In this document: piece by piece, positions 8,801 to 47,700 of the stretch
Layout: each line of letters begins with the position of its first letter
How positions within the stretch are numbered: the first letter of the stretch is position 1
Assembly (NCBI GenBank): GCA_044892525.1
Contig: CM097887.1
Location: forward strand, 50,406,001 to 50,470,000
Length of the DNA stretch: 64,000 nt
Direction: 5' to 3'
DNA from: Schmidtea polychroa
Lineage: Eukaryota
Translations under genes and position numbers: made by a program
The notes under the pieces: model-generated
The model's database searches: none
Told to the model about the DNA's origin: nothing
Seen by the model: the letters and a program-made list of their open reading frames with translations, nothing else

Positions 8801-9403
8801 GCTTTAGAAATTCGTAAATTTTCGGCATTTTAGCGGCCTTCTGTTCTCGTTCCTCACGTGCTCGTCGCTTAGCAGCCTCACTTAAATATGACTTAGACAT
8901 AGTTAAGGGTGTGCAGCTAATGCAATTATATAATATCCAACTAATTATACAATTATTGTAAATTGATATACAATAAGCAATATTATTTTTATCCTTTTTA
9001 CCGCATAGTAAATATCAACAAAACCCTATGACCTCTGCCATGATGTCGTTATACCGCCATTTTGAATCGAGTAGGCAAGTAAATTGGATTTGACGTTTTA
9101 TTAATAAACAAGTCCTCATCACATAAAAAAAACCAACGTCAAGTAAAGCAAATAATTTAATAGATGAATGGGTGTACATATGTGGTTTACAACTATATCC
9201 AATATAGATTCCTAATAATATTAAATGTATAAACCGTCCAAACTGTGGTTGCTGTCTTAATAAAAATAAAACAAACGCCAAAGCGATGCTTGGTTTGATG
9301 ACAATCGGGGAATTTATAATGCTCGAACGTATAAATTTTACTAATTTTTCGTCCTGGGCCCTTGTGCCGTGCACAACCTGCACAACCTATTGCTACACCA
9401 CTG
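5897..9403 (-). mobile_element. hAT DNA transposon with a ZMYM1/DUF4371-type transposase
   Basis: Perfect 8-bp TSD GATGACGT (5889-5896 and 9404-9411); termini CAGTGGCGTA / CAGTGGTGTA (reverse complement); internal transposase. Confidence 0.95.
6325..8900 (-). pseudogene. hAT transposase with a single frameshift near the C-terminus
   Basis: 822-aa ORF with TTF Zn finger (CHACWVF), FFSIMVDTTQDISKIDQ, RGQGYDGAATM, CAAHNLNL, TRWSSRYD and CERSFSKLKLIK. A 1-nt loss near 6455 shifts off the normal tail MSEGRLTDLAMLSIE...FAQEKARKRPF* (stop 6325-6327). Confidence 0.9.
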
Positions 9404-23700: not shown

Positions 23701-26700
23701 CATTTTTGCCATCCCTGTCAGAATTTCATTGCAGCGGCCGTCTATCCGCAACTTTTCAATTAACTCGTTGATCGCGCTCTCAATCATTCCTAGGCGAAAT
23801 ATAATTGGTCATTTCTCACTAATCCTTCATGAGCTTACCAGATTGAGTAATTATCAATGCCAATAATAATCGGATTTTCTCAGACATGGTTGCCATAGTA
23901 TTATTGATGACGTTGACTACCATTTTGTCTGGATTCTTTATTGAATTCCCACTGGCATCAGTACCCATGGCTAAATTCTATAATTATCCATAGGTCATAT
24001 TTATATTTAGACCTTCATTTTCTTTTTCATTNNNNNNNNNNNNNNNNNNNNNNNNNNNNNNNNNNNNNNNNNNNNNNNNNNNNNNNNNNNNNNNNNNNNN
24101 NNNNNNNNNNNNNNNNNNNNNNNNNNNNNNNNNNNNNNNNNNNNNNNNNNNNNNNNNNNNNNNNNNNNNNNNNNNNNNNNNNNNNNNNNNNNNNNNNNNN
24201 NNCATTTAAGTTAACCTGGTAATATTGTAGTCATGATATTCTAATGAAACATTTATTATAAACGATATTTTCATATTTTAAAAATATTTGAATACTGATA
24301 AACTGTTATACCGGGTCTTGCACCCATCGCGGCACAAATGCCATTGGCTGGATTCTGTGCTCCAATAGATTCATTAGTCAAAATAAAAAGATCAAATTTG
24401 ATTGATAAATTTTTTCCTATATAAGATTTTCGTGTTTTGTGTTTATTGTTGCGAGGGGAATAATGTAAAAATCTCAAACTACAAAAAATGCACTAAAAAA
24501 TTCTTATCTAACAAGTCTATAAATCGACAGACATTTGGCTAGTCGCATAGTAATTAGTTATATTACTCATTACGAATGAGATTAGATTTGATCGAAACTA
24601 TTTTAACTTTATACTAATTTTATTGTACTCTTTACTGAATATCAATTGTTACAGTTTGTTGTAACGCCAGGTTTAAACAAAAATTCATAAAATGGGGTAG
24701 AAAGAATTCGATTTTACAAACATAAAAATAGAGTTATTAATCTATGTCATTTATGAAGGATTGAAAAATTCAGAAAAGTGTGAAAACGAAAACTGAGCTC
24801 ACTTGTTCACATTCGCATAACTGATTAACACCTGCCTGAAAAGCAGACAAGCAAGCCTCTGATAGATAGAACATGTTCCCCACCGAGGCTGCTTCTTGTC
24901 TGAGGTGGGGCATTTTTTTAACCATAACTTGTAGTTGCTTTCTGACCATGTCCTTATTTGAATTTGGTTCGTTGTAAGAATCTGGAGTTTTATTGGGATT
25001 CTCTGTACTATTGACTGTGTTATCAATGCTTTTCTGAGCACTTGCCAGTTGCTTCAATTTCACTNNNNNNNNNNNNNNNNNNNNNNNNNNNNNNNNNNNN
25101 NNNNNNNNNNNNNNNNNNNNNNNNNNNNNNNNNNNNNNNNNNNNNNNNNNNNNNNNNNNNNNNNNNNNNNNNNNNNNNNNNNNNNNNNNNNNNNNNNNNN
25201 NNNNNNNNNNNNNNNNNNNNNNNNNNNNNNNNNNNNNNNNNNNNNNNNNNNNNNNNNNNNNNNNNNNNNTGCAATGTGGTTGTGTCGTAATTGAATCCAT
25301 AAATCATCGTTTTCTGATAAATCAACATTTACTAGTTTTTGAGTATCAAAATTTTTATAACTAGAAATTGTGCAATAAATAAATACTTAATTTAAATAAA
25401 TATAAATTTTACCTGTAAGTGTCATTTTTTATATCCAATATGTCATAAGCTAAGCATTGCAAATGTAAATCGTGTAGTATAGGAGTTAGAGGATCAATTG
25501 AACGGTCTAATATTAAAAGAACACTTCGATCTTTATGCATTGTCTGAAAACAGAATAATAATAATTTTAATCATANNNNNNNNNNNNNNNNNNNNNNNNN
25601 NNNNNNNNNNNNNNNNNNNNNNNNNNNNNNNNNNNNNNNNNNNNNNNNNNNNNNNNNNNNNNNNNNNNNNNNNNNNNNNNNNNNNNNNNNNNNNNNNNNN
25701 NNNNNNNNNNNNNNNNNNNNNNNNNNNNNNNNNNNNNNNNNNNNNNNNNNNNNNNNNNNNNNNNNNNNNNNNNNNNNNCGGTGAGATCTCCCCGTTTGGT
25801 AATGTACTGCGATACAGTACTGCATATATGGTTTTCAGGATCTTTTTAATATATTTTGATGCCTTTTGCTAGCTTCGCTCCTTCACTCATATTAAACTAT
25901 TTTTTTATATAATACAGTAGATAAAGTTGTTGGGTTTTGGATTACTTCAAGTCGGTTCTCTCTGACTCCTGGTGTTCTTTAAATTAAAACAATGAACGAC
26001 CCAACGTATATTAAAACAACAGGTTCACAATTTATTATCACTTTACAATTACCAATCAAAGTTTTACACGATTCTCTGCTCGGCGTTGATGCTTTGCAAA
26101 CAAACAATATTCACCTTTTGATCCTTTAGTTCTGTTGACTCTCGTTTTCCTCGGTTTCGGTTTGGTTTGATCTCTTTTCTCCTTTCCGTATTCTTAATTC
26201 TATTTCTTCTTTTCCCTACTTCCCTAATTCGTTTACCACTTTTCCTACAGTCTAATTCTTCGAACCCTAGCTGAGGCAAAATGCCGATTTTCTCTGATTT
26301 TCCCTTTGCTTATATACTCCTCGAAATCAGGATGACAAATGGTTATTGCCGAGCCAATCTTTCGTTTGACATTTTCTCCTACGTGTTTGCTTCGGCTGTC
26401 ATCCATAATGGTCCAACGAATCCAGATAATTAATGGCCCTACCGGTCTTCCTACGCGCGTTATCTTCTCCTTACTCTTTTCCCATTAATCATTGTGTCAA
26501 ACTAATGGGCCCAAATCTTCCTTTTGTTTGCCTTTCTTCTTGTTTACCCAGCTCGGGTTTCCTTTATCTCTCGGGTTCTCCATTGGCTCGGGTTTCCCAT
26601 TAGCTCGGGTTTTCCATTAGCCAACTAATTAATTAATTAACGTTTTCTGTTTTCATACGTTTGAATGTTTTTCGACCCTTCCTAACCCTTTTCTGATAAA

Positions 26701-29700
26701 TCCCTAACCATCATCTTGTTGACCATTAGCTAATCTATACCTGTCCCGTTTTTCCCATTCGATTTCGATGATTTTTCCATTTATTGATTTTTCTCGGATT
26801 TCCGGATTCTTGCCTTTCGTAATTGCTTTTTGCCTTTTCTAATACTGTTTCCATCACACTTTCCTTTACTATTGATTCTGTGCACGATCCCGCTTTTATT
26901 TGCCTTTTTTCCTCGCTTACTTTCCATTTGAATTATTATCCTAATTTTTATTTAACTTTTTAATTTTAATTTACAGACCTCAACATATCTCCCCCCTTAA
27001 AAAATTTTTTCGTCCTCGAAATTTATGTTTTGCTGTGATTATGTATTATTACTATTATTATTGTTGTCGTTANNNNNNNNNNNNNNNNNNNNNNNNNNNN
27101 NNNNNNNNNNNNNNNNNNNNNNNNNNNNNNNNNNNNNNNNNNNNNNNNNNNNNNNNNNNNNNNNNNNNNNNNNNNNNNNNNNNNNNNNNNNNNNNNNNNN
27201 NNNNNNNNNNNNNNNNNNNNNNNNNNNNNNNNNNNNNNNNNNNNNNNNNNNNNNNNNNNNNNNNNNNNNNNNNNNNNNNNNNNNNNNNAAAATTTGATTA
27301 TATCCCTTTGTTTGTCGACAGTAAATATTGATAAGATGTGAATTATTTAGATCGAATTAAAAAAAAGATAGTGCTTTAGATATTTAGCCGAAATATTAAT
27401 TAATTTCTTTAATATCTAAATTATAAAGTTTCTATACGATTTTTGATTTTTAATAAATATTTTGATCAAGTATTTTTTTTGAGATATCAAAGTTTTAATG
27501 TCAGAAGATTTCCATTAAAAACTCCTTTCAAGATAACTTCATTATTTTATTACGAATTTATTCAATTGTAAAAATCCTATTTATTTTTTTTTTAATAACT
27601 CAACCACTATATCAATATTTTTTAATGAAAAGTAGAACATAAAGACAATGAAAGTAGACAGATGTGTTTCCGACAGATATAGGTCAAATTCCCAAACATT
27701 TTCAAACTTTGAAGTACATCACCAATCGATCCGGCACGTCTACCGTTTTGGGATAATATATTTCATTGGTTGTATGTTTATAGGCAGCATAGAGAATATA
27801 TTTCTGTCATCCGAAACGAATTCGATTGGTCGATTCGATAATTCCTGCTATTGAAGAAATTTTGAAACTATATCAGTTTATCACAACTGATTTTTTTTCA
27901 TTAATTGTCTCTCTATTAGTTTGTTAATGATATAAAATATATTAAAAAAAATTATATCGTTTTCCTTGTTCTTTATTGCCTAGACGGAAAAGCAGTGGAA
28001 AGTAATTTTATTTATATATTTTCAAATTATTTGCGTTACTTTAGGTTCAGCCAGCGACGGTGAAGGTAGATTAAAGGATTATCTGTTATTATGTTTATTA
28101 AAGACATGAAATATTTTGAAAAAATTTTTCCTTGTTCCTTATTGCATAGCCGGAAAAGCAGTGGAAAGTAATTTTATTTATATATTTTCAAATTATTTGC
28201 GTTACTTTAAGTTTAGCTAGCGATGGTGAAGGTAGATTAAAGGATTATCTGTTTAACTACAAAGGCTATAATCAGTTAATGTGAAGGTAGATTAAAAAAT
28301 TATTTGTTTAAATACAAAGGCTATAATCAGTTAATAAGGCCCGTTATGGATTTAACTGATGTAATCGATGAAAAGTTTGAATTAGCCCTTATTCAAGTCT
28401 TATTGTCAGGGAAATCGTATTTTTTTTTTATAGTTATTTAATTATAATTCTACTAATTTTTTTTTTTTGTTGAAAAGTATTTATTTTATTAATTTTTTTA
28501 AATAGTTATTTAATTATAATTCTACTAATTTTTTATTGAAAAGTATTTATTTTATTAAAAGTATATTAAATAGTTATTTAATTATAATTCTACTAATTTT
28601 TAAATTATTTTATCTATGAATGATATTTTATTGAAAAGTATATTAAATAGTTATTTATTTATAAATATAATTTTATGTCAAGTTGTAGAATTCTTTTCTG
28701 AAGGTCCTAATTAATGAAATTGTTACCAAATGATGACAAATATCATTATTATTTTATTTGTGCTGCTGCACGTCATTTAATGACTCTATCTACAATAAAT
28801 GTTATTTGATATATGTTTAAATTGAATATGAAAAATCTATGTATGGGTCAGTGATATAATATTTCTGAAAATAGAAATTATCATTATTCTTTTATTTATG
28901 TTGTTGTTTTTGATTAAAATTTCACTTAACTATATAACTTTAATTGGAATCATTTTCCATCACAAAACTCACTTATATACAACTTTTATCGGTTCATATA
29001 CTAAATAGTTGGTGGGGTTGGGATCCCAACGATATTTATTATTTTTTTTGTTTTATTGATGGGTTATAATTAATTCACTACCGCCTTTTCCACAGCATGG
29101 TAAAAAGTTAAAGTCTCCTACCGCACCGACCGACTCATGATATCACTTTGTTTACTCCCCATGATAAGCGCTAGCGGTGTCACTAATTGTCGGTAGTCCA
29201 CTTTTGTCTTTCCGCCTGATAAAGTATCTGCTATGAACATTAATATTCCGAATATCTAGATGAATATTTAATTATCCTACGGTTTTGACGTAGCCGATAC
29301 TGATAGGCTCTATAATTAATTACCCTGTGGTTTCTTAACGTAGCCCGTACTGATAAGCTTTCTAATTAATTACCCTGTGGTTTGTTAACGTAGCCCGTAC
29401 TGATAAGCTTTCTAATTAATTACCCTGTGGTTTGTTAACGTAGCCTGTACTGATAAGCGTTCTATATAAGTTTCTGCTTTACCACTTTTCGTTAGTTTTG
29501 TCTTGCCAATCTTCAAGTAAGCATTTTATATTTTATTTCTTTTTCATATTTTTTTTGAATTTTAGTAACGCCATCCATCAATTAATATGGACGTAAGTGA
29601 TTACTTGTCTTTTATTTTTTTGTGATTCTTTTTACCATGCTGTCCTCAACTATTAGTAATGCGTTCCCTCACAGCAACCGAGCATTTGCAATCGCTGTCC

Positions 29701-32700
29701 AGGGTAGCCAAACCCCGGTGATTGCAAGTGCTCGTGTTGCTTATTAAATTAACTTATTGATGCTTATTAAATTAACTTATTTACTTTTTTAATTTTAATT
29801 CGTTAATTTGTTTATGCAACTACCTACACTCATGTTTTGGGTTATATTTTTGATTTTTGATTTTGTATTTACACTAAAAGCAAACTTCTAATTACAGCTA
29901 CTCGTATTTTTCTGACAATTTTAGCCGTATTTATACTTATTAATTTATTACGTAATTCTTACAATCAATTACTTCCCTGCACTAATTATTTGTCGAGGGC
30001 GCCATGGTACGGAGTTTTACATAGTATTTATTTCGTTTTTTCTTTTCAACCCTTACTATTTTAGGCTGTGCCAGAACCTAAGTTTGAACATCTCGATGTT
30101 ATGCAATGGTTATTTAACTGCCATACTAACAGGTTTTTAATTTCTTTTTCAGGGTCCCTTTACCACCGCGTCGAAAGGGATTGAAACGTACCTTTGCCTG
30201 TGTGGATACAGGCAGTAGGTTTGAACGACGCCCGCCTTGCAATGTACGCAGGGAATGGGACTGTGGCATCCAAAGTCCCGTTCTGTTGGACTCTGATGAC
30301 GAATAAACTTTGAATAAATGTTCAGCATACCTTTGTTTTTAATTTATGCTAGAAAGGGTGGGGTAATTGTGTCCCTCTTCGCGATTAGTCTTTGTTACTA
30401 CTAATGTGAAATTATTCTTTACTTATTTAAAATTTTGTTCTCTCGCCCAGTGGGTTACCCATTGCTATATAGTTATGCTAATTCATTAATTACTAATCAG
30501 CCATATTATTTATTTCTAATGCTCATTTAAGGTAGTCATTTCATTATTTGCAACGTTTATTTGAGTTATTCTATTTGCTCGTTTAACTTTGTTCATTTTT
30601 ATCTATTATTCATTCATTTAATTTATCACTTTTTTACTTATTTATTTATATCAATTTGTTTATTCATTTGATTATTTGTTAATTTACTTATAATTATTTA
30701 ACTATTATTTTTTTTTTTTTCTCGAGGACGAAAAAACACCAACAGGGTCCGTTTAAATAATTTATTTTTTTAGTCTAATTGATTTATCTCACCATCATCT
30801 TCCGATTCCTCCATTTCTTCTACTCTCATTCGAAACATCGCGAAATCGGCTTCGTGTTGAAAAAATAAGATTTCCAAACGGTCCAACCGCCTTTTCAGAC
30901 GGAAGTTTTCTTCCTCCAAATCTGTTATTCTGCCCTGCATGCTACGAAACTTTTGTTTTAGTTCTTGCGTACTTGTTTTACACTCTTTGCATGTCATCTC
31001 CGAGGCTTCTTGCATTCTCTGAAATTAAATGATAGTTATTTTTTTTGTATCACTCCTTATTCGCAAAGCATCAACACCTCGCTTCGAATCTCAAACAAAT
31101 TACACAGTTCATCCTATGGTACTTATAAAACATGCACATTGTTAATATAAATGTAATATATTTTTATACACTATTCATGCAGATCACAATTTACAGTCTT
31201 GTCTCATAATATGATGATGGTTGAAGGATAGTTAGTTGTCTCTCTTTTACACATATCAAGATGGTGATGATTATGAATGTTATTGATAAGATGAGAAAAC
31301 CTGTTATTAAAATGTAAATGAGATATTCACAATAGTTGACTGTCAAATCCGAATTTATCATCATTAGTTTGTTTGAGTTAGGTTTTGTCGTCTCTTGGGT
31401 CGGTAATTGGAAAGGTGATGTGGTTGTATATGATTTTCATTTCGATTCATTGATTGTCTTGACTTCCACAAAAACTGTTTGCCATCTGCCTGGATCGGTT
31501 ATCCATCGCTGATATTTAACTGTTAATTCCCATGCCGTCTCTAAATCAGAAGTGTAAAGTGTAAAAAATTGATTACCGGCATCTAATATAGTCAGGGTTT
31601 TTTGTTTGTAGATAATAACAACTCTTTCATCATTTCCTGATTTTCTATATATCGTTACCGGTCCATTTCCAACACTCAGGGTTATACGATTTGACTCGTC
31701 TCTGAGATAGATAGACTGGGTCTCACTCTTAAATCGTGACCATTGGTTTCTCACTACCGTTCCATTTTCGAGGCATATGTTCTCGTAGTAGTTTGCATTA
31801 ACTGAATAATTTTGATTCATTTTCAATTTCTCGTAGCGGATAAATGATTTTCGCGAGTTAAGGGTGTCGACATTTAACCCTTGAAATGTGATTCGCACTT
31901 TCACCAAGTCCACTGGCTTCCAATATATATTGATTCCGTTTATCTCTGGCTCTATCTCGATCAAGTTTCGCATCTCTTTTGTGTGCACTTCTATCGGAAT
32001 TTGCGTGTACCACTTTGACATGTTCTGTCTCAACAGCCATTGGTATTTGTAATTTGGCTTTAACTTTCGTACCGCAACTATATCTTTATCATAATTCAGT
32101 TCTACCACTTGTGCCGTATTGTCTAGTAAATTAATAATTTCTATTTGGTCTGCGATCTCGCATTTACAGCTCCATACTATATTTGTTAGAGTGGAATATA
32201 TATGTATTTTCTCCATTCCTCGGATTTTGTTTACCGCATATGGTAAATCAATTTTTTTGCCGCTCGCAACTGTTACTAACATCAGCATTACTGCTACATA
32301 TAATATCTTATTGATGTAGCTGACTGGTGTTGGATTTTTCGTGAATTTCTGTTTCAATTTTGTTTGACCCGTTACTTTATTCTGCTTGGATCTTAAGGGG
32401 TATCTAGATTCATCTTCCTCTGGCACTAGTTTACATCGATTTGCATGCACAATCATCGGGTTAGCCTTTTTACTCCTGAATGGTAATAACTTCAAATTGG
32501 TTTCGGTGGTGTCGCACACTTTGTAGGGTCCTTTAAATGGTCTTTGCAATTTAGGCGATAAACCTTTGAGAGGTTCCGGTCTGTTCAGATATACTAGATC
32601 TCCAATCTTTATGCCATGCGCATGTGCTTTTTTATCGTATAATTCTTTATATTTCTCTTGGTTGTGCTTTATTGTCAAACCGGCTTTAGTCCATACTGAC

Positions 32701-35700
32701 TGCATTCTTTCTTGCATCAATGCTTTATAATCGGGTATCTCCATATATTGTGAAATTGGTGGTTGGAATTTGAGATCAATCGGCATATTATTTTTCCTTA
32801 AATACATCAAGTAAAAAGGGGTCTCTCCTGTACTTTGATTTACTGCATTTCTGTAGGCAAATAAACACGGCTTTATGAAGTCGTCCCAATCTTTCTGTTT
32901 TCGATTCACATATGATGAGATCATATTTATCAGTGTCCCATTAAATCGTTCCACCAATCCATCAGTTTGTGGATGATATGGTGACGTATTCAATTTCCAA
33001 ATTCCAAATAAGTCTGTGATTGATTTAAACATCTCACTTTGAAAGTTCTTTCCTTGATCAGTTAACAATTTCTTTGGAGTACCATAGCGAAATATTATGT
33101 TTTCCACAAATATTCTAGCAATCGTATCTGCTTTTTGGTTTGGAATAGCGTATGCTTCTGGCCATTTGGTAAAGTAGTCACAAAAAACAACAATGTATTT
33201 GTTTCCTTTTGTTGTTTCCGGTAATGGTCCCAGAATATCCATTGCCGTCATCTCCATTGGTGCTGCAGGTACTGGCATCGGTTTTAATGGTACTTTAATC
33301 TTTTTACCAGTATTTCTGCGGGTGATGCATACTTTGCAACTGTTACACCAATTTTTCACGTCTTGTTCCATTGTCGGCCAAAAGTATTTCAATTTTAATC
33401 TTGATAGCGTCTTGCGCTTTGACAAATGACCTCCCAACGCTCCATCATGATACTGCATCAGTAATGCATCTCTGTGCTTGGCTGGTATAATGATTAATGC
33501 TTCCCCATTTTTCCAACATTTAAGTATTCCATTATGAATTACATATTTGCTGTTTGCATCTGTAAGTCGTTTCCAGTCTTGTTCTTTTCTTATTTTGACC
33601 GCTTGTTCCATAAATTGTTTTAATTCACTATCGTTTTCCTGATCATTTTGAAGTTCAGACATATCATTAACAGCTTTGATTGCTGCGAATATAGTGCCTT
33701 CCACTTTTTCAGGTGTCCCTTCACTATTATTTTCTGGGATTCTCGACATTGCATCTGCATTCGCGTTAGCTTTACCTGTCCGGTATTTAATCTCAAAGTC
33801 GTATTCTTGGAGGGCAATTGACCATCGTATTAACTTACTGGCTGAATCTCTGTGTTTCATTAACCACTGTAATGGATTATGATCTGTATAAACAGTAAAT
33901 TTTCTGCCCAATAAATATTGTCTAAAAGTAGTAATTCCATACACTAACGCTAACGTTTCCTTTTCAATCGTTGAGTAGTTTTTCTCGTGAGGCCTCAATG
34001 ATCTGCTTGCGTATGCTATTACATGGTCCTTTTCACCTTCAAATTTTTGTCCCAATACCGCACCCAATGCAACGTTGCTTGCATCCGTCATCAAGATAAA
34101 TTGTTTTGTAAAATCTGGACATCTTAATATAGGAGTTGTTACTAATTTCTCTTTTAATGTATTGAAAGCGTTTTGTTGTATTTGTCCCCAAATAAATTTA
34201 TTGTTTTTCTTTAGTAACGTATTCAATGGTTGTGCGATATGAGAGAAATCTTTTATAAATTTTCTGTAATAGCTCGCCAAACCTAAAAATTGTCTAACCT
34301 CATCGGCATCTTTTGGTACTGGGTACTCTTCCACTTTTTTGATGTTATCTGGATTAGTTTGTAACCCTCGCCGTGATATTATATGTCCTACATAAATCAC
34401 TTCTGCTTTGCCCCATTCACATTTCGATGGTTTGATTTTTAATTTTGCACTTTTGAGCCGTTTAAATACAGTTTCTACATCCTTCAGATGTTCTTCAAAA
34501 TCATTTGAAAATATTATTATATCGTCGATATATACCAATGCATGTCGAATTCCTCGTAACACATAATTCATTCCTCGTTGGAATGTAGCTGGGGCTCCTG
34601 TTAATCCAAATGGTAACACATTGAACTCATACAGTCCTTTGCCATCCGAGAACGCCGTCTTTCCTCTATCTTCCTCTTTTACTCTAAATTGATTGTACCC
34701 TTTGTTTAAATCAATAACTGTGAAATATCGTGCCTCTCCCATTTGATCAAACATTTCTTGGGATACCGGAATTGGATAAGTGTCTTTCCTTGTAACTTGA
34801 TTTAGCTTCCGATAATCTACGCAAAATCGTAAGTCTCCATCTTTTTTCTTAACTATCACTATTGATGAGGAGAATGGTGACGCGCAGGCCCGGTTTTAGG
34901 CATAGGCGACGTCGGCAGCAGCCTAGGGCGCCGATTTACAAGCGGGCGCCAAATAGTTCTGCTTTTTTTATCAAGTAAATTAAATATTTTATAAACTTTC
35001 TATCTTTATATTGATNNNNNNNNNNNNNNNNNNNNNNNNNNNNNNNNNNNNNNNNNNNNNNNNNNNNNNNNNNNNNNNNNNNNNNNNNNNNNNNNNNNNN
35101 NNNNNNNNNNNNNNNNNNNNNNNNNNNNNNNNNNNNNNNNNNNNNNNNNNNNNNNNNNNNNNNNNNNNNNNNNNNNNNNNTTCCATCGTTGTTTTAGTCC
35201 GATACCGATTACTTATTTCTTTTAAAATTTAAAAAAATACAACGGAAAATCGATTTAAAAAAATATTTTGCAAGTTCAAAAAAGTTAACTGAAAAGCGGT
35301 TTTAAAAAAAATTTAGCATATAGCATGCTCTGAAATTTTTTTAAATTACGCAATAATTTTTAGTTTTATTTTAAAAGAATAAAGTCACATGCAGTAAAGT
35401 TTTAAAAGACTAAAGTAAATGTTAAAAAAGTTAAAAAATAAATAAACAGAAAGTGAAAAAAAAAATAAAATTTAATTAGTGCAGGGCTCAAATTTTTTTT
35501 ATTTAAAGTATATATAATTTCGGTCGTACTTCCAGTATAATTTTTACATATATACAACACAGTAATTTAATTTATATTGGATTTTTCTACACCTATTATT
35601 AAATCTATTATATTCTATTAATTTTTACTTGAGGTAGCATAATGGCAGATAGAAAAAAATTATCTGGCGCACAAAATAGAAAACGTAAAGCTGAAAAGAA

Positions 35701-38700
35701 AAATGAAGAAAAAAAGCAAGAAGGTGCTTTTCTGAAATATATTTGTCGTCAACAATCACAAGATAAAAATCGAAATGAAATGACTCCGAGAAAACAAGTA
35801 TACTGCAATTTGGAAGAGCAAATGGATAGGAACTCTACAACTAGAAATGCAGAGGTGCCTATTTTGACTGAGTTTCCACATACGAATGTGGAAGAAACTA
35901 TAGAAGAAACTGAAGTTGAAACAATTGAAGAAACTGTTGAAGAACCTATAGAAGAAATTGTATTAGAAACTATAGAAGACACTGAAGAAATTTTAATTAA
36001 TGAAACTTTGGAAATATTAGAAAGCGTAAATTCGAGTCTTGATTATAGTGATCCGGCAACTTGGTTAAATTCACATGACTTACGTTCTGGCCGTTTGAGG
36101 CAAATTTTGGTTGAACACGGACCAGAACAAATTGAAGAATTTGATTTTCCTCAAAATGAGAGCCATAGAAAATTTTCAATGAATTTTTATAGAAGGAGAC
36201 TTGCAAATGGAGAAGAAATGCGGCGTCATTGGCTACAGTATTCCAAAACAACTAATTCGGCTTTCTGCTTTTGTTGCAAAATTTTTAATAATAACCAGCG
36301 TGTAATACATCTCTCCGATAAAGGATCAAGCGATTGGAAAAATATGTCTGTAATTTTAGAAAGACATGAGAAAAATAAGGATCATTTAATTAATTTTCAA
36401 ACTTGGAAGGAGCTAGAATTGCGTTTAAAAAAGAATAAAACTATTGACCAGGATAATTTGCGTCTCATAAAACAAGAAGAGAGACACTGGCAACAAGTCT
36501 TAGAGCGTCTTATAGGTCTAGTTAAAGTGCTTGCTACGCAAAACATTGCATTTCGCGGAAGCAATGAAAAATTGTATTCTCCTGGAAATGGAAACTTCCT
36601 TAGCTTTGTAGAATATTTGGCCTCTTTTGATCCAATTATGGGTGAGCATCTTCGCAGAATAAAGAACAATGAAACACAAGTTCATTATTTGGGAAAAGAT
36701 ATTCAGAATGAGTTAATACAACTTTTATCTAAGAGTATTAAAACAAAAATTTTAAAATCGATTTCCATGGCTAAATATTTTTCAATAATCCTGGATTGCA
36801 CACCAGACGTTAGCCATACTGAACAAATGACGTTGATTATTCGTTTTGTCCATACAAATACAGAAAATTGTGATTTAGATCCCATATGCATAAGAGAACA
36901 TTTTTTGGGATTTGTGAAACTAACAGATACAACTGGTGCTGGTATGACCGATGAAATCGTTCAGATGTTAGCAGATATGTCATTACCTATTGAGAACTTG
37001 CGTGGCCAAGGATACGATAATGGTAGCAATATGAAAGGCAAAGAAAATGGCGTGCAACGGCGAATTCTTAATCTAAATCCACGAGCACTATTTGTTCCTT
37101 GTTCTGCGCATTCTTTGAATCTGGTTGTTAATGACGCTGTAAGCTGTTGTTTAGATGCTACATCATTTTTTATGTTAGTGCAACGAATATATGTCTATTT
37201 TGCCGCTTCAACACGTCGATGGGAAGTTTTAAAACGTCATGCTTCAAACTTGACAGTGAAGCCATTGAGCGATACAAGATGGGAGAGCCGAATCGATGCC
37301 CTTAAACCTCTACGCTATCAGCTAAGTAAAGTTATTGCTGCACTTATTGATATTTTTCAAGATACTTCTCAAACAGGAGTTTCTGGTAATACTTCACGTA
37401 TAGAAGCACAGGGCCTTGCTAAAGCTATTTCGAATTTCGAGTTTGTAGTTTCTGTTATTATCTGGTATGATATTCTTTTCAACATAAATATTACAAGCAA
37501 ACAACTTCAATCTGAGAAAATTAATATTCAAGATGCTATGAAGCTACTAGAAGATACCAAAAAATTTCTATTCAACTCCCGAAATGATGAAGGTTTTGAA
37601 AGAATATTGGTAGATGCGCGAGAACTTGCTGAAGAATCAGAAATTTCCCCAATCTTTAAACAAACTCAGCGTATCAGAAAACAAAAAAAACAGTTCGAAT
37701 ATGAAGCCAACGATGAGCCCATTCAGAACCCAAAAGAAAAATTTAAGATCAGCTTTTACTTCGCAGTTTTGGATAGAGCTTTAAAATCTGTTGAGCAAAG
37801 ATTCACCCAAATGTCAACGATAAATTCAACATTTGGATTTCTATACAACATACATAATTTGCAATATATTTCGTCAAAGAAAATATTAGAGGATTGTCTT
37901 AAACTGGAAAATTTTTTACGGCACGATGATTCTAAAGATATTGATGGTACAGATTTATTGAACGAATTGATATTTATAGCTAGACATATTCCAAAAAACT
38001 TATTGCCGGAAGATGTACTTAATTATATTTGTAAAAATAATATAGTGGACAGCGTTCCAAATATATTTGTTGCTTTGCGAATTTTATTAACCCTACCAGT
38101 TTCTGTGGCAAGCGGTGAACGAAGCTTTTCGAAGCTTAAACAGATCAAAACATATATAAGATCTACAATGTCACAAGAACGGCTTGTGGGATTAGCAATA
38201 TTGTCGATTGAACACGAAATGGCGCGTGATATAGATACGAAGTTGCTGCTTGAAGATTTCGCTAAACTAAAAGCACGAAAAATTAAATTTTAAATGGTTT
38301 TTGTTTTTATATATATTTTTGTGTAATAAATAAATGAAGTATAGTTATTTTATTTTCATTTACTTCTTTAATTATTGGGTTTGTTTCTAGACTAGAGGCG
38401 CCATTTTTTTAGTTTGCCTAGGGCGCCAAATACTCTAGCGTCGGGCCTGGTGACGCGCTATCTCGAATTATTCCAAATTCCTTCATTGCTGTAATCTGTC
38501 TATCGCTTTCATCTTGATGAACGTAGGGGATTCTGTATGGCTTTATTTTTATTGGAGTTTCGTCTAATAACGGTATTTCATGCTCAATTACATTGGTTAA
38601 ACCCAAATCATATTCGTGTTTGGCAAAGATATCTCGGTATTTCCTCAACAGTTTTGTGAATTCCTTTTTCTGCCTCTCATTTAAATCATTGCTTACCACT

Positions 38701-41700
38701 TCAGGCTCCTTATACACCTTGACGTTTCTTGGTATTTTACAATTTGTTTCAATAGACATTTTTGATAATTTTCCCAATTTTGTTTTTGGGTGTAGCTGAA
38801 CCGGTTTTTTGCTGCCATTCGTTATATGGACTGGTACTATCTGATTTTCCACTTTGACAACTTCGTCACATATCGGTAAATCATATTTTTCGACTAGCGT
38901 TTGATTTGGTTCGAATATAAAATCACCATTATCCACACTCATGGTATTTGCACAATATACCATCTCCGATTGTGGTGGTATTGTCAATGTCTGATTCACA
39001 AACACTTCACCTGCCCTGTGAATTATTTCTCCTGTTTCTCCTGCTATCAAATTACCTGTCTTTAAATCAAGTGAGACTCCGTCCAGCTGCTCTAATATAT
39101 CCATGCCGATCAGACATCGTACTGGGCTTCCCTTCATTATGAGCGCATCGTGCGCTATTATTCGATCTCCAATATGGAATATGACGTTAAGTTGTCCAAT
39201 TATGTTTAATTCATTTTTTGATAATGACCTCACTATTTCGTCGGTAGGCTTTATTCGCATTTTCTCCTTCGCGTTTAATACATTTTCCGATATTATTGTG
39301 TGACTAGATCCCGAATCAACAAAAGCTTCCACTTTATGTTTGTTCATTTGTATAAATATTCGGGGTTGCTTTCCTCTTTTTGTTAATGTCATCATTGAGT
39401 AGTTGCATGGTAAGCCTAACATATTTTTTCTCTCGATCTCTGCGCTAGAAGGCTCGATTCTCTCTCCTACCATTCCTTCACATTGTAATGCGATGTTTTC
39501 CACTGGTTTCATCTCTCGTAATCGATCAACTGGATACACTGGTGCTGGTTGCATAAATGATTTTGGTATACACAGTTTTGTAAACGTGTCTACGCTACTC
39601 GCATTCAACAGTGGCTCTTTTAAGATTTGATAGGTTCTTAACGCTTCTTTATTCATTCCACTTAGTTCTTGATTGTCAACATATAACGGTGCACTATCAC
39701 CCTCGTTGTCATTGTCATTGTTCTCGTCCCTTGAAGGGGTTGTACTCGCGTAGCTCACCTTTTTCTTCTTTAATATTCGAGCCTTGAGTATCTCCAACTC
39801 CTGATATTGATGATGAGTAATGAAGAATCTAGCCAATAATGGTATGCACCCAATTACTAGTTTCCACGACCAACCTGTGATCGCGTATAATCTGTGTGTT
39901 GATAGGACCTGCGATATTATTACTTTAATTACAACACATATTACATAAATTCCAATCAGTCCGGCACACGCTTGTCCAATGAACATAAACTTTCCCCAGA
40001 TCTTTTTCATTGTATTATACGTCGCTTTCTTGTAATGATCTGGAGTTAATAAATACTCATAATTTACCTTCCCACTTCCGCTTGGGAGAATTGTATCTAC
40101 CATTTCCATTATTACTCTTTCTTTCTTTGATGGAAATAACAAGTTTCTGCGAGCTTCCTCAATGTCTTCGTTCGAGTAAATTCCACTTTGCGACAATTTT
40201 TCTAACGACGTAAAATTTACCAGATATTGTAATTCTGTCAATTCTAAGTTTTCCGGTGTCTTTACTTCTCGATGATCTGGTAATGCAATCCAAGATTCTG
40301 GTGTTAGTCTGTATAATGGTGCTAACAATCTATTGCACTGTAATACTTTCGGTTTCGCGTCCTCTTCCAGTAAGATTCGTGTTACAGGCTCCATAAATCG
40401 CAACTTTCCATTTAAATTCACTGGTAACTCGTTGGTGCATTGGTCATACTTTGTCAGTTTAACTGGTACCGCTTTACATTTATAGCTATATAGTGCTTCA
40501 CCGAAAATTCTGGCGAACACTCCATTTTCTGCAATTAACATTGGTGCTACCAAATTAGGATTGGTTATAGCCATTGTCATCCGATTTCGGAGTATTTCTT
40601 TGTTGAGATTGCAATCATTTATAATAACTTCTCGGTACACATTTTCAACAGTATTTTGACCAAAGTGAAATAAATAATCTATTTTGTTATTAAAGTAATT
40701 TGTCAACTTAATATCTCCGGCATGTATGTTTGTTTGGGCCTCTGTAATCATCTTCTGAGATACATATATACCTTTATAATTTGTCTCATAGACACTTTGT
40801 CCACACTTTGTTTTAGTTTCTTTTCTCAGGAATCGCATCCCATCTTCCTCCGAGGTTGACATTAACACTGTTGGAGTATCTTTCATCCGTAGAGGTGTGA
40901 TTCTTGTTGTTGTACTCGTTGCTGGATCCATTCTTATTTTCTCAGGCTTTTCCCTGATCTGTTCTCCCGTTATTTCTTTAAAACTCATTGACTTCAATTG
41001 CACTAAATTGCACTTTTTGGTATCGACATCGTACACCAAGATTGATTCTCCTGTCTGACAGCTAGATTGTTTCATGTTGCAGAATGGATGTGTTTGTAGT
41101 TTACCAGTATCATCATCAAATGATCCATCAAATTCTCTTAATTCTGACATGTACTCTTCCACAACCACGGCTTTGTCCATTATAGCATCGTCTACTTTGT
41201 ATGGCTCGCCTTGGCAATCACCATTCGACTTTATTATCCCTCGCACGGTTACAGTCTCACGGATTTTGTGGTTAAGCTTTGCTTGTAGTTTGAGATCTGC
41301 ATTGATTTTCAACTGTCCTGTTTGAAAGGCTGCCAAACAATTCTCTGGAATTATTTCTATCGGTCTCGGTATCGATTGCATTTTCACCATCGATGAGTGG
41401 CTCCATTTCCCACAAAAAAATACAAAAGTAGTTCGCTTCACTGTACACTCTCTCACCTTTGCTCGTCGAAACCCCGATTCTTGATATACATGATATTTTA
41501 CTGGATTTGTTACTTTAAATTTTACTGGATATGCATCCGAACACTCTGCTACGTTTACCAACGAATATACTCTTCCCATTTCGGTTTGGGAGCAGTCGTA
41601 TGCCACCAATGAATTCGTCGTGTTTATTATTCCCAATAACATAATAATAGAAATCATTAACCATGGAAATGCGAGTTTTCCCTTTTTCCTCACTGTCTCG

Positions 41701-44700
41701 GTTTTTGGGCTCTCAGCCTTTTGTATCAAATTTTCCCATCCGCCATTGTTTGCGATCCACCTAGCCAAATATTTATTCGTCATTTCCGTAGCTTTCTTTA
41801 TCAATGATTTTGAACTGTCATTTTCCAGACAACCATAAATACCAATCTCCAATATTATATAGGCTAACGCTGTCAATATTACATCTCGATCTAACTCAGT
41901 TCGTGTTAGGTCCTCAATCACTGCTTCCTCACAAAATTCCTTTTCTTCATAATTTCTTTTAATTATCGACGGTAATCTCCTCTTTAATTCCGTTGCCAAT
42001 CTTTTTACAACTCTTTCCTCCCCCTCCAAAGTATCATCTTCTGTTTCAGTTTCATCTAACAAGTACAATTCCGTAACTAAACTTTTTAACATTCGTTCAG
42101 TCTCGTTTGATTCATCTAAACGCTCAGTTTCGCTCGATTTATCTAAACTCAAGGATTCAATTTCCGCATCATTCTGTTTTTTCCGACATATCGCAATGTC
42201 ATTTTTCGTTTCAACGAAGTTCTCTTCGCTCTTCATCTCATCTATGCTCGGTAGTACCCTATTATCGGTGCTCATTTCCTCGATATCCCTTGCAACTTCA
42301 TTTTCCGATCCCATTTCCTCTTTTTCCATTGTTTCTAATCTCTGCAATTCATTAATTTCTTGATCAATTTCTCCTGGGTCATCTACAACTTCAGTTTTAA
42401 TCTCCACATTATTATTATCCATTTCCTCATATAGAGGCCAAAACGGTACTATTACCGCATCTCTTTCCATTTCATCCCTTTGTTTTGTTGCGTACACATT
42501 ATTAATACAATTTGGGTTACATCCGTAGTTTAATAAATATTCGTCATCATCCAATTCTCGTCCTTTGAACGTCAACACGATAATTCCTTCATTACCTAAT
42601 ATCTCCGCTGCTTTTTGTCGTATTTTCTTTGCTTTTACACTCCAATGTTCCTGATAATATTCAATCCTTTGATCCGCAATATTTAACGCTATTATCAAAG
42701 ACTTCGCACTATCGTCTGCCGCCTCATAATCATGTCCTAGTTTTCGGATTACCTCTTTTAGTTTTGCCTGATAACTCGTCGGTTTATTCGTATACGGTAC
42801 GATGCATTCAAACAACCCTTCTTTCATGTCTCGATCCATTTCGATGCTCATTATGAAGTCGATACTCGCATTAATTTTATCTCTATTCCCTGCATACAGG
42901 GTATCTTGTAAATCTGCTAGAATCTTTTCCCAATTTTGTCTGTCTGAATTCAAAGTATTAACAGCATTAATAACATTTACTTTATTTTTCCAGCCTGGTA
43001 TCAGACCGCAATCTACTAAGTACTCTTCGTCTTCCAGACATCGATTTTCGAATTTTAATTGCACTTGCCATCCACTGTATTGACGCAGGATTCGCTCCTT
43101 TAACTCTCTGATTTGTCCGTAGGCATTTACACGGAATTGGCACTTCACATTATCAAGTCCCGTCGTTTCCACTATGATATCAGCTAAATCCCTTGTTGAC
43201 CGTAAAGCCTTGCCAAACTTTTGCATTTGTTTAAGTATCTCATCGTCTCTGTTTCCTTTGAATAACTTTGCACATAAATTTATGGCTCTCTTTAGTTCGC
43301 TTTGGGTTAGTGACATCACACTGAGTTCTGCGATCCATCGTTTCAACTGGGAGTTGTCAGTTTCCATTTTCTCAAGCCATTTTTCAACTCGGGCTAACAG
43401 TGCAGTTGGATTCTCATCTGAAGCGATCTTTCGCACTTTCGTGGCAGGTTTTCCCTCACCTTCTGACACGGTTCCAATTATCATATGAGATTCAGTTTCC
43501 TCATCTGATTCAAATTTCGCCACTAGTTTGTTTAGCTTCTGTCGCATTTCTCGAAATTCCTTTTCCATTTTGTCTTGAAATTCCTCTCTCTGAGCATATG
43601 TCATATTACTAGTGTTTGGCATATCTTCTTGGAATCTGATTGATTTCTTTAAAATAGGTCTGCTGAATCTTTCTGAGTTCCTTGGGCATGATCGCGCCAT
43701 GTGGCCGTATCCCTTGCACGAATGACATTGGATCTGTCCATTTGTATTCACTTTGTCCCTTTGTGGTGAAGGTGGCGTTGACGATGACCTTGATCTGGTA
43801 AAACAGTTTCTGCTAATATGCCCTTTCTTTCCGCATCGATAGCATTCGACATCACTGCTGATCCGTTTGTTTTCTGTGAATCTCTTGTTAGGGCTGGGAT
43901 TTTTCCCATATTTGAACCAACATTGATTTGAGTAGTGTCCAGACTTTTTGCAATGTTCGCATTGAGGATTATTTACCTGTCCATTTGATTGTACGTTCAT
44001 GGCTGATCTACTGGCTTGAAATCTATTATTTGGTCTCAAAATTGGACTACTGATCTGATTTATTTTCTTTTCATCCCATGGTGCTCTCACAGGCGTAATT
44101 GATCGCTCACGTCTCTCCACATTAACTCCAAAAGCATCTGATCTTTTTGCACTTTTTAAATTCAGCTCTATCTTCATGGCTTTCTTCACGAGCTCATCAA
44201 AATTGGAAAAATCCACATAACATAGGGCTTTTTTGATTTCGGAGTGGACTCCGGTTATAAACTGATCTTCTAATAGCTCTTTAACCTGCTTGGCCATTTC
44301 TGCTTGGTCTGGTTTAACTTCAAAGGCTTTATCTGCTAAAGTGGTCAGATGATAAGCAAACCTTGAACTCGATTATAAAATTTCTGTCGCATGATTCTTT
44401 TGATATCTCCACCAACCAGTTTCAGTGCCATTGCATCCTTCAATTTTGTCCAATCATTGCCAACATTTCGTTTGTCGACTTGCTGCCAGGCTTCTCTTGC
44501 CGCACCCTTCAAATAGAGTGGGAATCTCTGAACCATAATGGCTTGTGTCCATCCGTATGCTGAGGCGTACATATAATAATCTCCCATGAAATCTGCAAAT
44601 TCAACAGGGTCTCCTCCATATTGATTGACGGGTAATTTCTGGCAACTTGCGAAATCAATCATCTCTCTATTGAGAGGCATGACAGCATTATCATTTGCCA

Positions 44701-47700
44701 TTTGGACTTGTTTCTGACTTCTGAGGTTGTATCGGTTCACTTTGAGCTAAACTTCAAACGTTAAACAATAATTTAAAATTATTTTTCAACTTCTTTTAAA
44801 TCTCCCAATAATAGCCTTTTATAATCTCGTTAACACTATTTTCAAACTTCTAAGCCGACTTTCACTCGCGTCAGTACTAATTCTTTTTATAATTCCTTTT
44901 TCACTAGCTTTCAATAATTTCCCTCCGACTTTCAATCACGTCGGTACTATTTTTTTCAACAATTAATTTTTTCACTAACTTTCAATAATTTTCCGCCGAC
45001 TTGCGATCACGTCGGGCTCACCAGAATATATGTTGGGTTTTGGATTACTTCAAGTCGGTTCTCTCTGACTCCTGGTGTTCTTTAAATTAAAACAATGAAC
45101 GACCCAACGTATATTGAAACAACAGGTTCACAATTTATTATCACTCTACAATTACCAATCAAAGTTTTACACGATTCTCTGCTCGGCGTTGATGCTTTGC
45201 AAACAAACAATATTCACCTTTTGATCCTTTAGTTCTGTTGACTCTCGTTTTCCTCGGTTTCGGTTTGGTTTGATCTCTTTTCTCCTTTCCGTATTCTTAA
45301 TTCTATTTCTTCTTTTCCCTACTTCCCTAATTCGTTTACCACTTTTCCTACAGTCTAATTCTTCGAACCCTAGCTGAGGCAAAATGCCGATTTTCTCTGA
45401 TTTTCCCTTTGCTTATATACTCCTCGAAATCAGGATGACAAATGGTTATTGCCGAGCCAATCTTTCGTTTGACATTTTCTCCTACGTGTTTGCTTCGGCT
45501 GTCATCCATAATGGTCCAACGAATCCAGATAATTAATGGCCCTACCGGTCTTCCTACGCGCGTTATCTTCTCCTTACTCTTTTCCCATTAATCATTGTGT
45601 CAAACTAATGGGCCCAAATCTTCCTTTTGTTTGCCTTTCTTCTTGTTTACCCAGCTCGGGTTTCCTTTATCTCTCGGGTTCTCCATTGGCTCGGGTTTCC
45701 CATTAGCTCGGGTTTTCCATTAGCCAACTAATTAATTAATTAACGTTTTCTGTTTTCATACGTTTGAATGTTTTTCGACCCTTCCTAACCCTTTTCTGAT
45801 AAATCCCTAACCATCATCTTGTTGACCATTAGCTAATCTATACCTGTCCCGTTTTTCCCATTCGATTTCGATGATTTTTCCATTTATTGATTTTTCTCGG
45901 ATTTCCGGATTCTTGCCTTTCGTAATTGCTTTTTGCCTTTTCTAATACTGTTTCCATCACACTTTCCTTTACTATTGATTCTGTGCACGATCCCGCTTTT
46001 ATTTGCCTTTTTTCCTCGCTTACTTTCCATTTGAATTATTATCCTAATTTTTATTTAACTTTTTAATTTTAATTTACAGACCTCAACAAAGTAAAATAGA
46101 CTTGAGAACTAGTCGCTTGTCAGAATGCGCGGTGGCTAGCTCAAGGCACAATTCGTTCGATCGGTAATGTGTTAAATGTTAAACAAGTAATTGATAAAAT
46201 AAGATTTCGATGCGGAATATATATTAAATTGAATTTTCTCATTTAATTTAATATTAATTCTGCAGTGAAAGCTTATTTTATCATTTACTTGTTTAAAAAT
46301 AATAGTTATAATTATTATTAAACTTATTATTAATTATTTACTTACAAGGCCCATGAACCCATTCGCTTCATCATTTTTGAACATTTCTTGTTGAACTTTA
46401 ATTGCAAATCTTTGTGCCTCTTCTGTCCTAAAAAACCAATTAAAAATCTCAAAGTAAACAAAATTTAGTTAAAAAGAAAATATAATCAAAATTTATTATT
46501 AAAAATAAGCAAGACTAAATTTGACATTTAACGCTAACCTCTTGATTTTTTTAAAGAAAAATAGTTTGAATTTATATTTTGGATTTTTAGATAGTGATAA
46601 AACAAGGGAAATCTGCTTGCATTCCTAACTTAGATGGTCACAAAACAATGACATTATCATTGGTCATTAAATTTATTTTATTTTCTAATTCTTATTGTTA
46701 AATTAGATTTGACTAATATTAAAGAGAAATTGCTTTTAAAGTATAATACTACCCGAATAAAGAATTCTACTATCAATTTTACCCAATACTTACAATACTT
46801 ATCCCGGCAATACGAGGAGTTTCAGTTACGAATTGAACAAATTGTGTAAAATTATTTATTCTAGATGGCCATTCCCAACCCAAATAGTATATTTTGCATT
46901 AGAATCTCTTTTATGCTTAAAGTATAATTGGAATCATCACCTTATACTTTAGTAAATATAGTTATAGATAACAATTATATTTGAATTATATGACCAATAT
47001 AAACAGCTATCAAACTATCAATTGTGACCGTCACTGACATTATTGTCACTTGGTTATATTAACTGATTCCGGATTATTATTATCATTAAAACAACAAATA
47101 AAAAATTCTCTTTATTTACAAAATTAATAAAGCATTGGCAAAAATTTGAGACGAAAATAAAACCAAAATTATAGTGAAAACTTTTTATGTAGAAAAAATT
47201 TAATTAACTAAAATTTATATTATTTTAACCTTCGCGGAACATTAATGAATAAATAAAAATATACAAGTAATGAAAATTAAAAATGTTTGGAATCAAAGAA
47301 AAAATACAATAAATGATTTTTACACAAAATTTAAGACTGTAGGGTTCTGTGATTTGACAGCTTCTTCATATACGATGCCTCTTCTAATGGTACACTAGTT
47401 TAGAACTTATATAGATCTTATTTGATTCGAATGTCATTACAATATTTAGTTGTGTTTAAACCGATGTTGAGATACAATAATGGGTTTTTGAAACTTATTT
47501 TGTAATATGTGGCCACAGCTGTAATATTTTATGTATAATAGTAATGAAGTGATCAGGTTCTCGGATCTGGCAGTAATATGATTGTGTTCAATCCCCAATG
47601 GTACCATATCTGTTACATAATAGTGATGAAAAACAAATAAACTTAGTAGGTAGATATAGTGGCCTACGGCAGCAATAGGGGGGGGGGGGGGTGGGTCAAA

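Follow-up and report, generated by a model that had tools for sequence, protein, structure and literature searches.

The Burro retroelements encode a single open reading frame (ORF) in which Gag, three CCHC knuckles, a ubiquitin-like (Ubl) or SUMO-like domain, a BCL2-like domain and a mononegavirus-like Env lie in frame upstream of Pol, with Env between Gag and Pol, and they have been called possible proviruses (Arkhipova and Yushenova, 2019, PMC6431247). In the text of this review, Burro1 is more than 30 kb long and has an ORF of 4,873 amino acids (aa) with MATH, BIR and ankyrin domains, and Burro/GYPSM1 has an internal region of up to 25 kb, an ORF of about 4,900–5,100 aa and a dUTPase-like domain between protease (PR) and reverse transcriptase (RT). 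Burro-type elements are described as targets of piRNAs in a planarian regeneration model (PMC8532177). Here, we analyze an element of this kind in a 64,000-nucleotide (nt) stretch of Schmidtea polychroa (the window; GCA_044892525.1, contig CM097887.1, positions 50,406,001 to 50,470,000). The layout of most of its polyprotein is already published, and the part that is likely unreported is a predicted surface protein downstream of integrase (IN), composed of fibronectin type III (FN3)-like domains, a transmembrane segment (TM) and a C-terminal PDZ ligand.

The GAG-ENV-POL elements with a gB-type Env have been found in flatworms, nematodes and bryozoans (Chary and Hayashi, eLife 2026, PMC13524379). 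One of them, Smed_errantivirus_2, is listed with 215 intact copies under a criterion of >98% nucleotide identity over three genes, and its table gives no long terminal repeat (LTR) or tRNA. The window family resembles it in having a gB-type Env between Gag and Pol and a high copy number, and 246 of 251 residues of Env domain I are identical when this Env piece alone is compared by eye; the other five Smed rows given there are 34–64% identical to row 2. As compared on the Env piece alone, the window family appears to be Smed_errantivirus_2 or its very close kin, with a Burro-type layout. By eye, two further families of the same genome, called here the sister and third families, resemble Smed rows 1 and 3 of that paper. 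These comparisons by themselves make a Schmidtea-type planarian the likely host. Like Burro/GYPSM1 as reviewed, the window family has a single ORF with the order Gag-3xCCHC-Ubl-BCL2-Env-Pol. Unlike Burro1, it is about 16.6 kb long with a protein of 3,334 aa, and no Pfam matches to MATH, BIR or ankyrin were found in the element. The window element works like Burro, departs from Burro1 in size and in the MATH and BIR domains, and is filed under the published errantivirus family. The same glycoprotein family was captured by the mosquito BEL/Pao element Anakin (Dezordi et al.); unlike Anakin, the window element has the Ty3/Gypsy order PR-RT-RNase H (RH)-IN with Env upstream. An earlier reading of this DNA from sequence only (the sequence-only reading) had suggested that the layout might be new, which the published Burro and flatworm GAG-ENV-POL elements contradict; family and headline layout are known and by themselves add little.

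Copies of the family were searched with a 300-aa Env query, and 131 matches were scored of 2,466 candidates. All 131 are 96–100% identical, and 14 of them have stop-free frames of at least 3,200 aa, seven of these being 3,334 aa long. Natural copies were compared in 20 ten-kb stretches (14 chosen for long frames and 6 others) and in 20 5' stretches. The Bcl-2-like domain, Env, PR, RT, RH, IN, the post-integrase part and the TM tail lie in one stop-free frame in 13 of the 14 stretches chosen for long frames, while among the 5' stretches Gag is present in 19 and the frame runs unbroken from Gag to Env in 6. The natural protein (3,334 aa, stop to stop) comprises Gag, CCHC knuckles, two Ubl units, the Bcl-2-like domain, gB-type Env, PR, RT, RH, IN, a signal, the FN3-like ectodomain, TM and tail, and its parts are placed in the window copy as follows:

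44345..44746, minus strand: N-terminal part of Gag (capsid), PF03732 at E 1e-8 on a natural copy; in this copy a frame break precedes the next frame
43668..43970, minus strand: three CCHC zinc knuckles (nucleocapsid), above the Pfam cut-off
42483..43415, minus strand: two helical plus ubiquitin-like units; Pfam ubiquitin at E 7e-4, below cut-off; family profile against ubiquitin/ISG15, best E 2e-7
41703..42110, minus strand: Bcl-2-like domain, BH2 intact, BH1 NWGR absent; family profile against Bcl-2 at E 1.4e-4
41601..41681, minus strand: internal signal-like hydrophobic segment 1, the predicted Env signal (hydrophobic-segment prediction)
39888..41600, minus strand: fusion glycoprotein of gB type, chuvirus-like, its C-terminal TM at 39888-39992; PF24664 at E 7e-94
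39078..39371, minus strand: aspartic protease (Pfam)
32970..34853, minus strand: RT, RH and IN (Pfam)
32250..32324, minus strand: internal signal-like hydrophobic segment 2, C-terminal to the integrase C-terminal domain, with a matching segment in relatives
31440..32249, minus strand: predicted three-FN3-like ectodomain (Atlas, all-beta model, Foldseek), followed by an early stop at 31437-31439 in the window copy
31191..31436, minus strand: stalk rich in S/T, TM (31227-31334) and a cytoplasmic tail with the end ETRL; other copies have this part in frame with the polyprotein

The sequence-only reading had joined the window frames into one polyprotein and asked for uninterrupted copies of the same order; such copies exist. 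Its domain order also stood, by Pfam for CCHC, Env, PR, RT, RH and IN and by family profiles for Ubl and Bcl-2, and its FN3-like call is supported, but the membrane-anchored tail had been missed.

The C-terminal ~370 residues of the natural protein consist of a signal-like hydrophobic segment, a beta-rich part of 270 aa, an S/T-rich stalk, a TM and a tail. None of the 18 other copies has a stop at the position 31437-31439 of the window copy, and in all of them the frame runs on into stalk, TM and tail. The ending YYETRL is present in 17 of 18 copies, and a C-terminal [ST]-x-[VL] is what we take to be a class I PDZ ligand. The Atlas puts FN3 clusters first for the ectodomain (0.92, though 160 of 256 features are shared), its structure model is all-beta with pLDDT 64, and the best Foldseek matches in PDB come from fibronectin, CD45 and Tie2, as fragments with three FN3 domains (E 8e-8, TM-score 0.25–0.30). 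A search of viral structures gave mixed FN3/Ig-like phage and virus matches with TM-scores under 0.4 and named no closest relative, and a word-index search with the post-integrase profile returned only P0004, a homologue already part of that profile. By these models, the post-integrase part is likely a type-I membrane protein with signal, three FN3-like domains, stalk, TM and tail. The text of the Burro review (PMC6431247) has no such post-integrase FN3/TM/PDZ protein, and the main text of PMC13524379 has no hits for Bcl, ubiquitin, fibronectin, FN3, PDZ, polyprotein or exonuclease. No description of the protein was found in the literature searched, outside which lay paywalled articles, Repbase reports, bioRxiv supplements and figures; it is likely unreported.

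Seven lineages were compared: the window, sister and third families, the polyproteins P0007 and P0008 from other assemblies, and the shorter homologues P0004 and P0005. The sister family has the same layout, with 79% identity in RT and 85% in IN; its ectodomain is 38% identical and ends ETWV. The third family is 55% identical in RT and ends SSLV or STLV. Together with P0007 (4,029 aa, ending TSWV) and P0008 (3,865 aa, ending DALF), it also finishes with a signal-like segment, ectodomain, TM and tail, as is likewise true of P0004 (STLV) and P0005 (VTQV). A post-integrase TM with a short tail is therefore found in all seven lineages, and an [ST]-x-[VL] ending in six of them (ETRL, ETWV, SSLV/STLV, TSWV, STLV and VTQV), against a background of 2.5% in these proteins. 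Since the lineages are relatives, the shared tail motif is conservation, not independent origin. The Bcl-2-like domain was undetected at its place in two of the five full-layout lineages (P0007 and P0008), which makes the surface protein the more constant cargo.

Several further features of these relatives were observed. The P0007 and P0008 proteins have three protease-like domains, of which one follows integrase; in the Bcl-2 position they have a stretch that is acidic or rich in proline. An internally deleted copy of the sister family (L043, in G000:C52) runs from protease in frame into the C-terminal part of integrase and the post-integrase protein; RT, RH and the IN core are lost, and a 1,341-aa frame retains Env and the FN3 protein. 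In the sister and third families, an ISG20-like exonuclease lies in an ORF downstream of the main frame (PDB ISG20L2, E 2e-9; L043:4168-5625, minus strand; also L045, L047 and L052), and none was seen in the 3' region of the window element.

Selection was estimated from variants shared between copies in 14 of the 20 stretches, 12 of these 14 being chosen for long frames; three stretches with register-shifting frameshifts, two truncated ones and one near-duplicate were dropped. The counts of nonsynonymous and synonymous shared variants were 10/33 for env (dN/dS, w, 0.08), 0/12 for RT and 0/14 for IN. For the post-integrase ectodomain they were 6/10 (w 0.16; p 4e-4 against neutral), and this protein is under purifying selection. 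For the Bcl-2 region, the small counts of 10/5 (w 0.51; p 0.18 against neutral) mean a weak constraint, indistinguishable from neutral.

Transcription was followed in three raw RNA runs, which come from two studies and of which roughly 2% each was read. In all three runs, stranded RNA spans the element in full, LTR to tail, with coverage of the hAT interior near zero; the site of a nested hAT transposon of the window copy is crossed, without the transposon, by 23, 38 and 16 reads, respectively. The family is high-copy and transcribed. Many RNA molecules start at window position 45842 inside the 5' LTR in two of the three runs (42 and 99 molecules), a possible start site; a TATA-like box near 45418 lies about 420 nt downstream of it.

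The best explanation as a whole, which we regard as probable, is that the window holds a recently inserted, broken copy of a family whose intact members make a polyprotein likely to yield capsid, enzymes and two surface proteins. The intact polyprotein likely threads the endoplasmic reticulum (ER) membrane four times, in keeping with four hydrophobic segments at the predicted places, two of them internal signal-like and two TM. The Gag-Ubl-Bcl-2 part would be made in the cytosol. Signal 1 would open translocation of Env into the ER lumen, and a signal peptidase cut would leave the Gag-Ubl-Bcl-2 part tethered to the membrane; the Env TM would end translocation, placing PR-RT-RH-IN back in the cytosol. 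Signal 2 would send the FN3 protein into the lumen, and its TM would leave the ETRL tail, the putative PDZ ligand, in the cytosol. Two signal-peptidase cuts would be supplemented by PR, which would make the rest and free Gag and the enzymes. Processing by signal peptidase and the element's own protease had been proposed by the sequence-only reading, and it is reasonable in view of the two internal signal-like and two TM segments. By this route, synthesis on a single membrane would yield Gag, Pol and the two glycoproteins in a 1:1 ratio, without a frameshift or a spliced message for env.

By analogy with gB fusogens that depend on partner proteins, the leading candidate role for the FN3 protein is to assist the gB-type fusogen in attachment or sorting, with its PDZ ligand steering it to junctions or to one cell face for cell-to-cell spread; we give this role a little less than an even chance. 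The broader proposal is that flatworm-type Gag-Env-Pol elements include an undescribed clade with a two-glycoprotein entry system in one polyprotein, namely a class III fusogen of gB type, placed ahead of Pol, and a post-integrase type-I FN3 protein with a conserved PDZ ligand as its attachment or sorting partner for cell-to-cell infection. This is put forward tentatively, as a possibility with the greater share of doubt.

Several observations count against these proposals. The ectodomain model is middling, both in pLDDT (64) and in whole-chain TM-score (0.25–0.30), and FN3 was undetected in the post-integrase proteins by Pfam and by a PDB profile search (0 matches). No significant sequence match to the window ectodomain is seen in the corresponding part of the third family, P0007 or P0008, so that homology across all seven lineages rests on position, topology and tail, and P0008 lacks the class I motif. 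The RNA reads are mostly 95–99% alike, which makes them evidence for transcription of the family and not of the window copy in particular. The long read joints shown (15 of 23) are without GT-AG ends, and since 15 of 23 were shown, a subgenomic message may be possible. The model of processing and particles is itself drawn from sequence, structure models and RNA reads.

The FN3 protein could instead be a modulator of the producing cell that is not part of the particle, acting as a decoy receptor, a reinfection blocker or a competitor for PDZ scaffolds. Its fold neighbours are the FN3 arrays of fibronectin, CD45, Tie2 and cytokine receptors, it is placed with other modulator-like cargo, and its ectodomain diverges fast (38% to the sister family, against 85% for IN) while the tail motif stays. 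This fits less well with the retention of the FN3 protein in more lineages than Bcl-2 and with the internally deleted sister copy, which keeps Env and the FN3 protein in one frame without RT, RH and IN. We consider such a role possible, though on the doubtful side; as a decoy or scaffold competitor it is a close rival of the partner role.

The other domains were identified with different strength. The Env matches PF24664, the chuvirus-type fusion protein, at E 7e-94, and CCHC, PR, RT, RH and IN are above the Pfam cut-offs. In single-sequence Pfam searches ubiquitin (E 7e-4) and Bcl-2 (E 0.018) fall below cut-off; profiles built from relatives match ubiquitin/ISG15 (best E 2e-7) and Bcl-2 (E 1.4e-4), and all 60 rows shown for the latter are Bcl-2 or Bcl-xL. 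The profile support that the sequence-only reading wanted for its glycoprotein and Bcl-2 calls was thus obtained. Aligned to Bcl-2, the domain has an intact BH2 and a replaced BH1 NWGR (signature as in the Bcl-2 row). The BH2 motif and a helical fold are present, and the model is weak (pLDDT 59), with Foldseek led by Mcl-1 at E 0.06 and no match at E <= 0.001. The Atlas search with the Bcl-2 piece gave no usable match, and when the Ubl/Bcl-2 region was used in a word-index search, none of 7,991 candidates matched. A conserved block of ~110 aa lies between PR and RT, where the dUTPase-like domain of Burro sits, and its profile found no dUTPase in PDB. Short multi-copy Bcl-2 frames (150–180 aa) also occur elsewhere in the genome, and they are not beside env or pol in the three stretches checked.

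The sequence-only reading had seen the element as armed against host cell death, that is, with the Bcl-2-like domain as a true apoptosis inhibitor. The homology to Bcl-2 and Bcl-xL stands, the hydrophobic segment after the domain could serve as a tail anchor, and Burro1 also has a BIR domain according to the review text (PMC6431247). The step from homology to inhibition is less secure, as BH1 NWGR is replaced, the shared-variant w of 0.51 is indistinguishable from neutral (p 0.18, small counts), and the domain is undetected in P0007 and P0008. An inhibitory function is conceivable, and we hold it with more doubt than belief. In the best explanation, the domain would be a dispensable host modulator, for which a block of apoptosis is one option only.

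It is unlikely that the element spreads only within cells, with Env and the FN3 protein anchoring assembly on internal membranes and no infectious particle leaving. The polyprotein itself would tether Gag and Pol to the membrane, and hundreds of near-identical copies fit ordinary retrotransposition in the germ line or stem cells. However, Env is under purifying selection (w 0.08) as strong as that on the Pol parts and keeps its full fusion-protein match, and the lumenal three-FN3 ectodomain with its PDZ ligand suggests the cell surface. The infectious character proposed by the sequence-only reading is to be taken as putative. As for a one-off chimera or misassembly, which the three breaks of the window copy could bring to mind, there is next to no chance of it, since it is refuted by the natural copies and RNA reads, and the same order recurs in two further families of the genome and in P0007 and P0008 from other assemblies. 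The natural copies and RNA reads support what was first read from the window, a Ty3/Gypsy element that encodes one polyprotein and carries its Env between Gag and Pol.

The window copy lies on the minus strand. It has the Ty3/Gypsy hallmarks, with LTRs ending TG...CA, a target site duplication (TSD), a primer-binding site, a polypurine tract and the Pol order PR-RT-RH-IN, and it is placed in Ty3/Gypsy (Metaviridae) from Pol order, LTR features and the published family (PMC13524379). Its remaining features are as follows:

45031..46088, minus strand: 5' LTR of 1,058 bp, 1,056/1,058 identical to the 3' LTR, with the TSD AAGT outside
45006..45023, minus strand: primer-binding site, an 18-nt complement of host tRNA-Trp(CCA) that starts 7 nt past the 5' LTR
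34885..38449, plus strand: nested hAT DNA transposon with transposase frame 35633-38293 (terminal inverted repeats, TSD, Pfam)
30770..31024, minus strand: small ORF of 84 aa with a coiled coil, a possible accessory gene, open in 16/18 copies; weak coiled-coil Pfam matches only
26986..26998, minus strand: polypurine tract, abutting the 3' LTR
25928..26985, minus strand: 3' LTR of 1,058 bp, with 2 differences from the 5' LTR

The LTRs differ at two sites and the 4-bp TSD AAGT flanks them, so the insertion is young. The length of about 16.6 kb excludes the nested hAT, which is 3,565 bp long with 8-bp terminal inverted repeats, an 8-bp TSD and an 886-aa transposase frame, interrupts the start of RT, and is absent from all 18 other copies reaching RT. 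It divides the long frames left in the window copy, 38418-44372 (1,984 aa) and 31437-34895 (1,152 aa). The copy is broken three times, by a Gag frame break near 44,350, by the hAT in RT and by the early stop at 31437-31439. The LTRs, TSD, primer-binding site, polypurine tract and hAT had all been recognized correctly by the sequence-only reading, and the Gag frame break and early stop had been passed over or missed.

The tRNA motif matching the primer-binding site has 821 genomic occurrences, and ARAGORN calls tRNA-Trp(CCA) at one of two loci checked. The tRNA-Trp(CCA) genes form a tandem array with 284-bp spacing in G000:C4 from about 55.02 Mb, where nearly all of the first 100 listed of the 821 matches lie. 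The 3' non-coding region is long and contains tandem repeats of 55, 68 and 50 bp, and the leader has repeats of 71 bp (window 27960-29464 and 44854-45015). The 84-aa coiled-coil ORF has good RNA coverage and a weak match inside P0008 (E 2e-4). Elsewhere in the window, two further transposase frames are of hAT type (DUF4371; a Spin-doc zinc finger is present in one), and another frame matches EF-G domain III, the three lying at 6432-9014 (minus strand), 19570-21132 (minus strand) and 3199-4557 (plus strand).

The primer-binding site, LTRs and domain map described above supply entries missing from the published table (PMC13524379). If the two-glycoprotein proposal is true, the element would resemble herpes and other multi-glycoprotein viruses in its build, and its integrase would be set free through cleavage by signal peptidase. 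The unannotated last ~370 residues carry more weight than the layout: if they form a second surface protein that bears a PDZ ligand, this would give a direct handle on how gB-type retroelements choose their target cells, and also on the question of retroelement movement from one cell to another, into neoblasts for instance.

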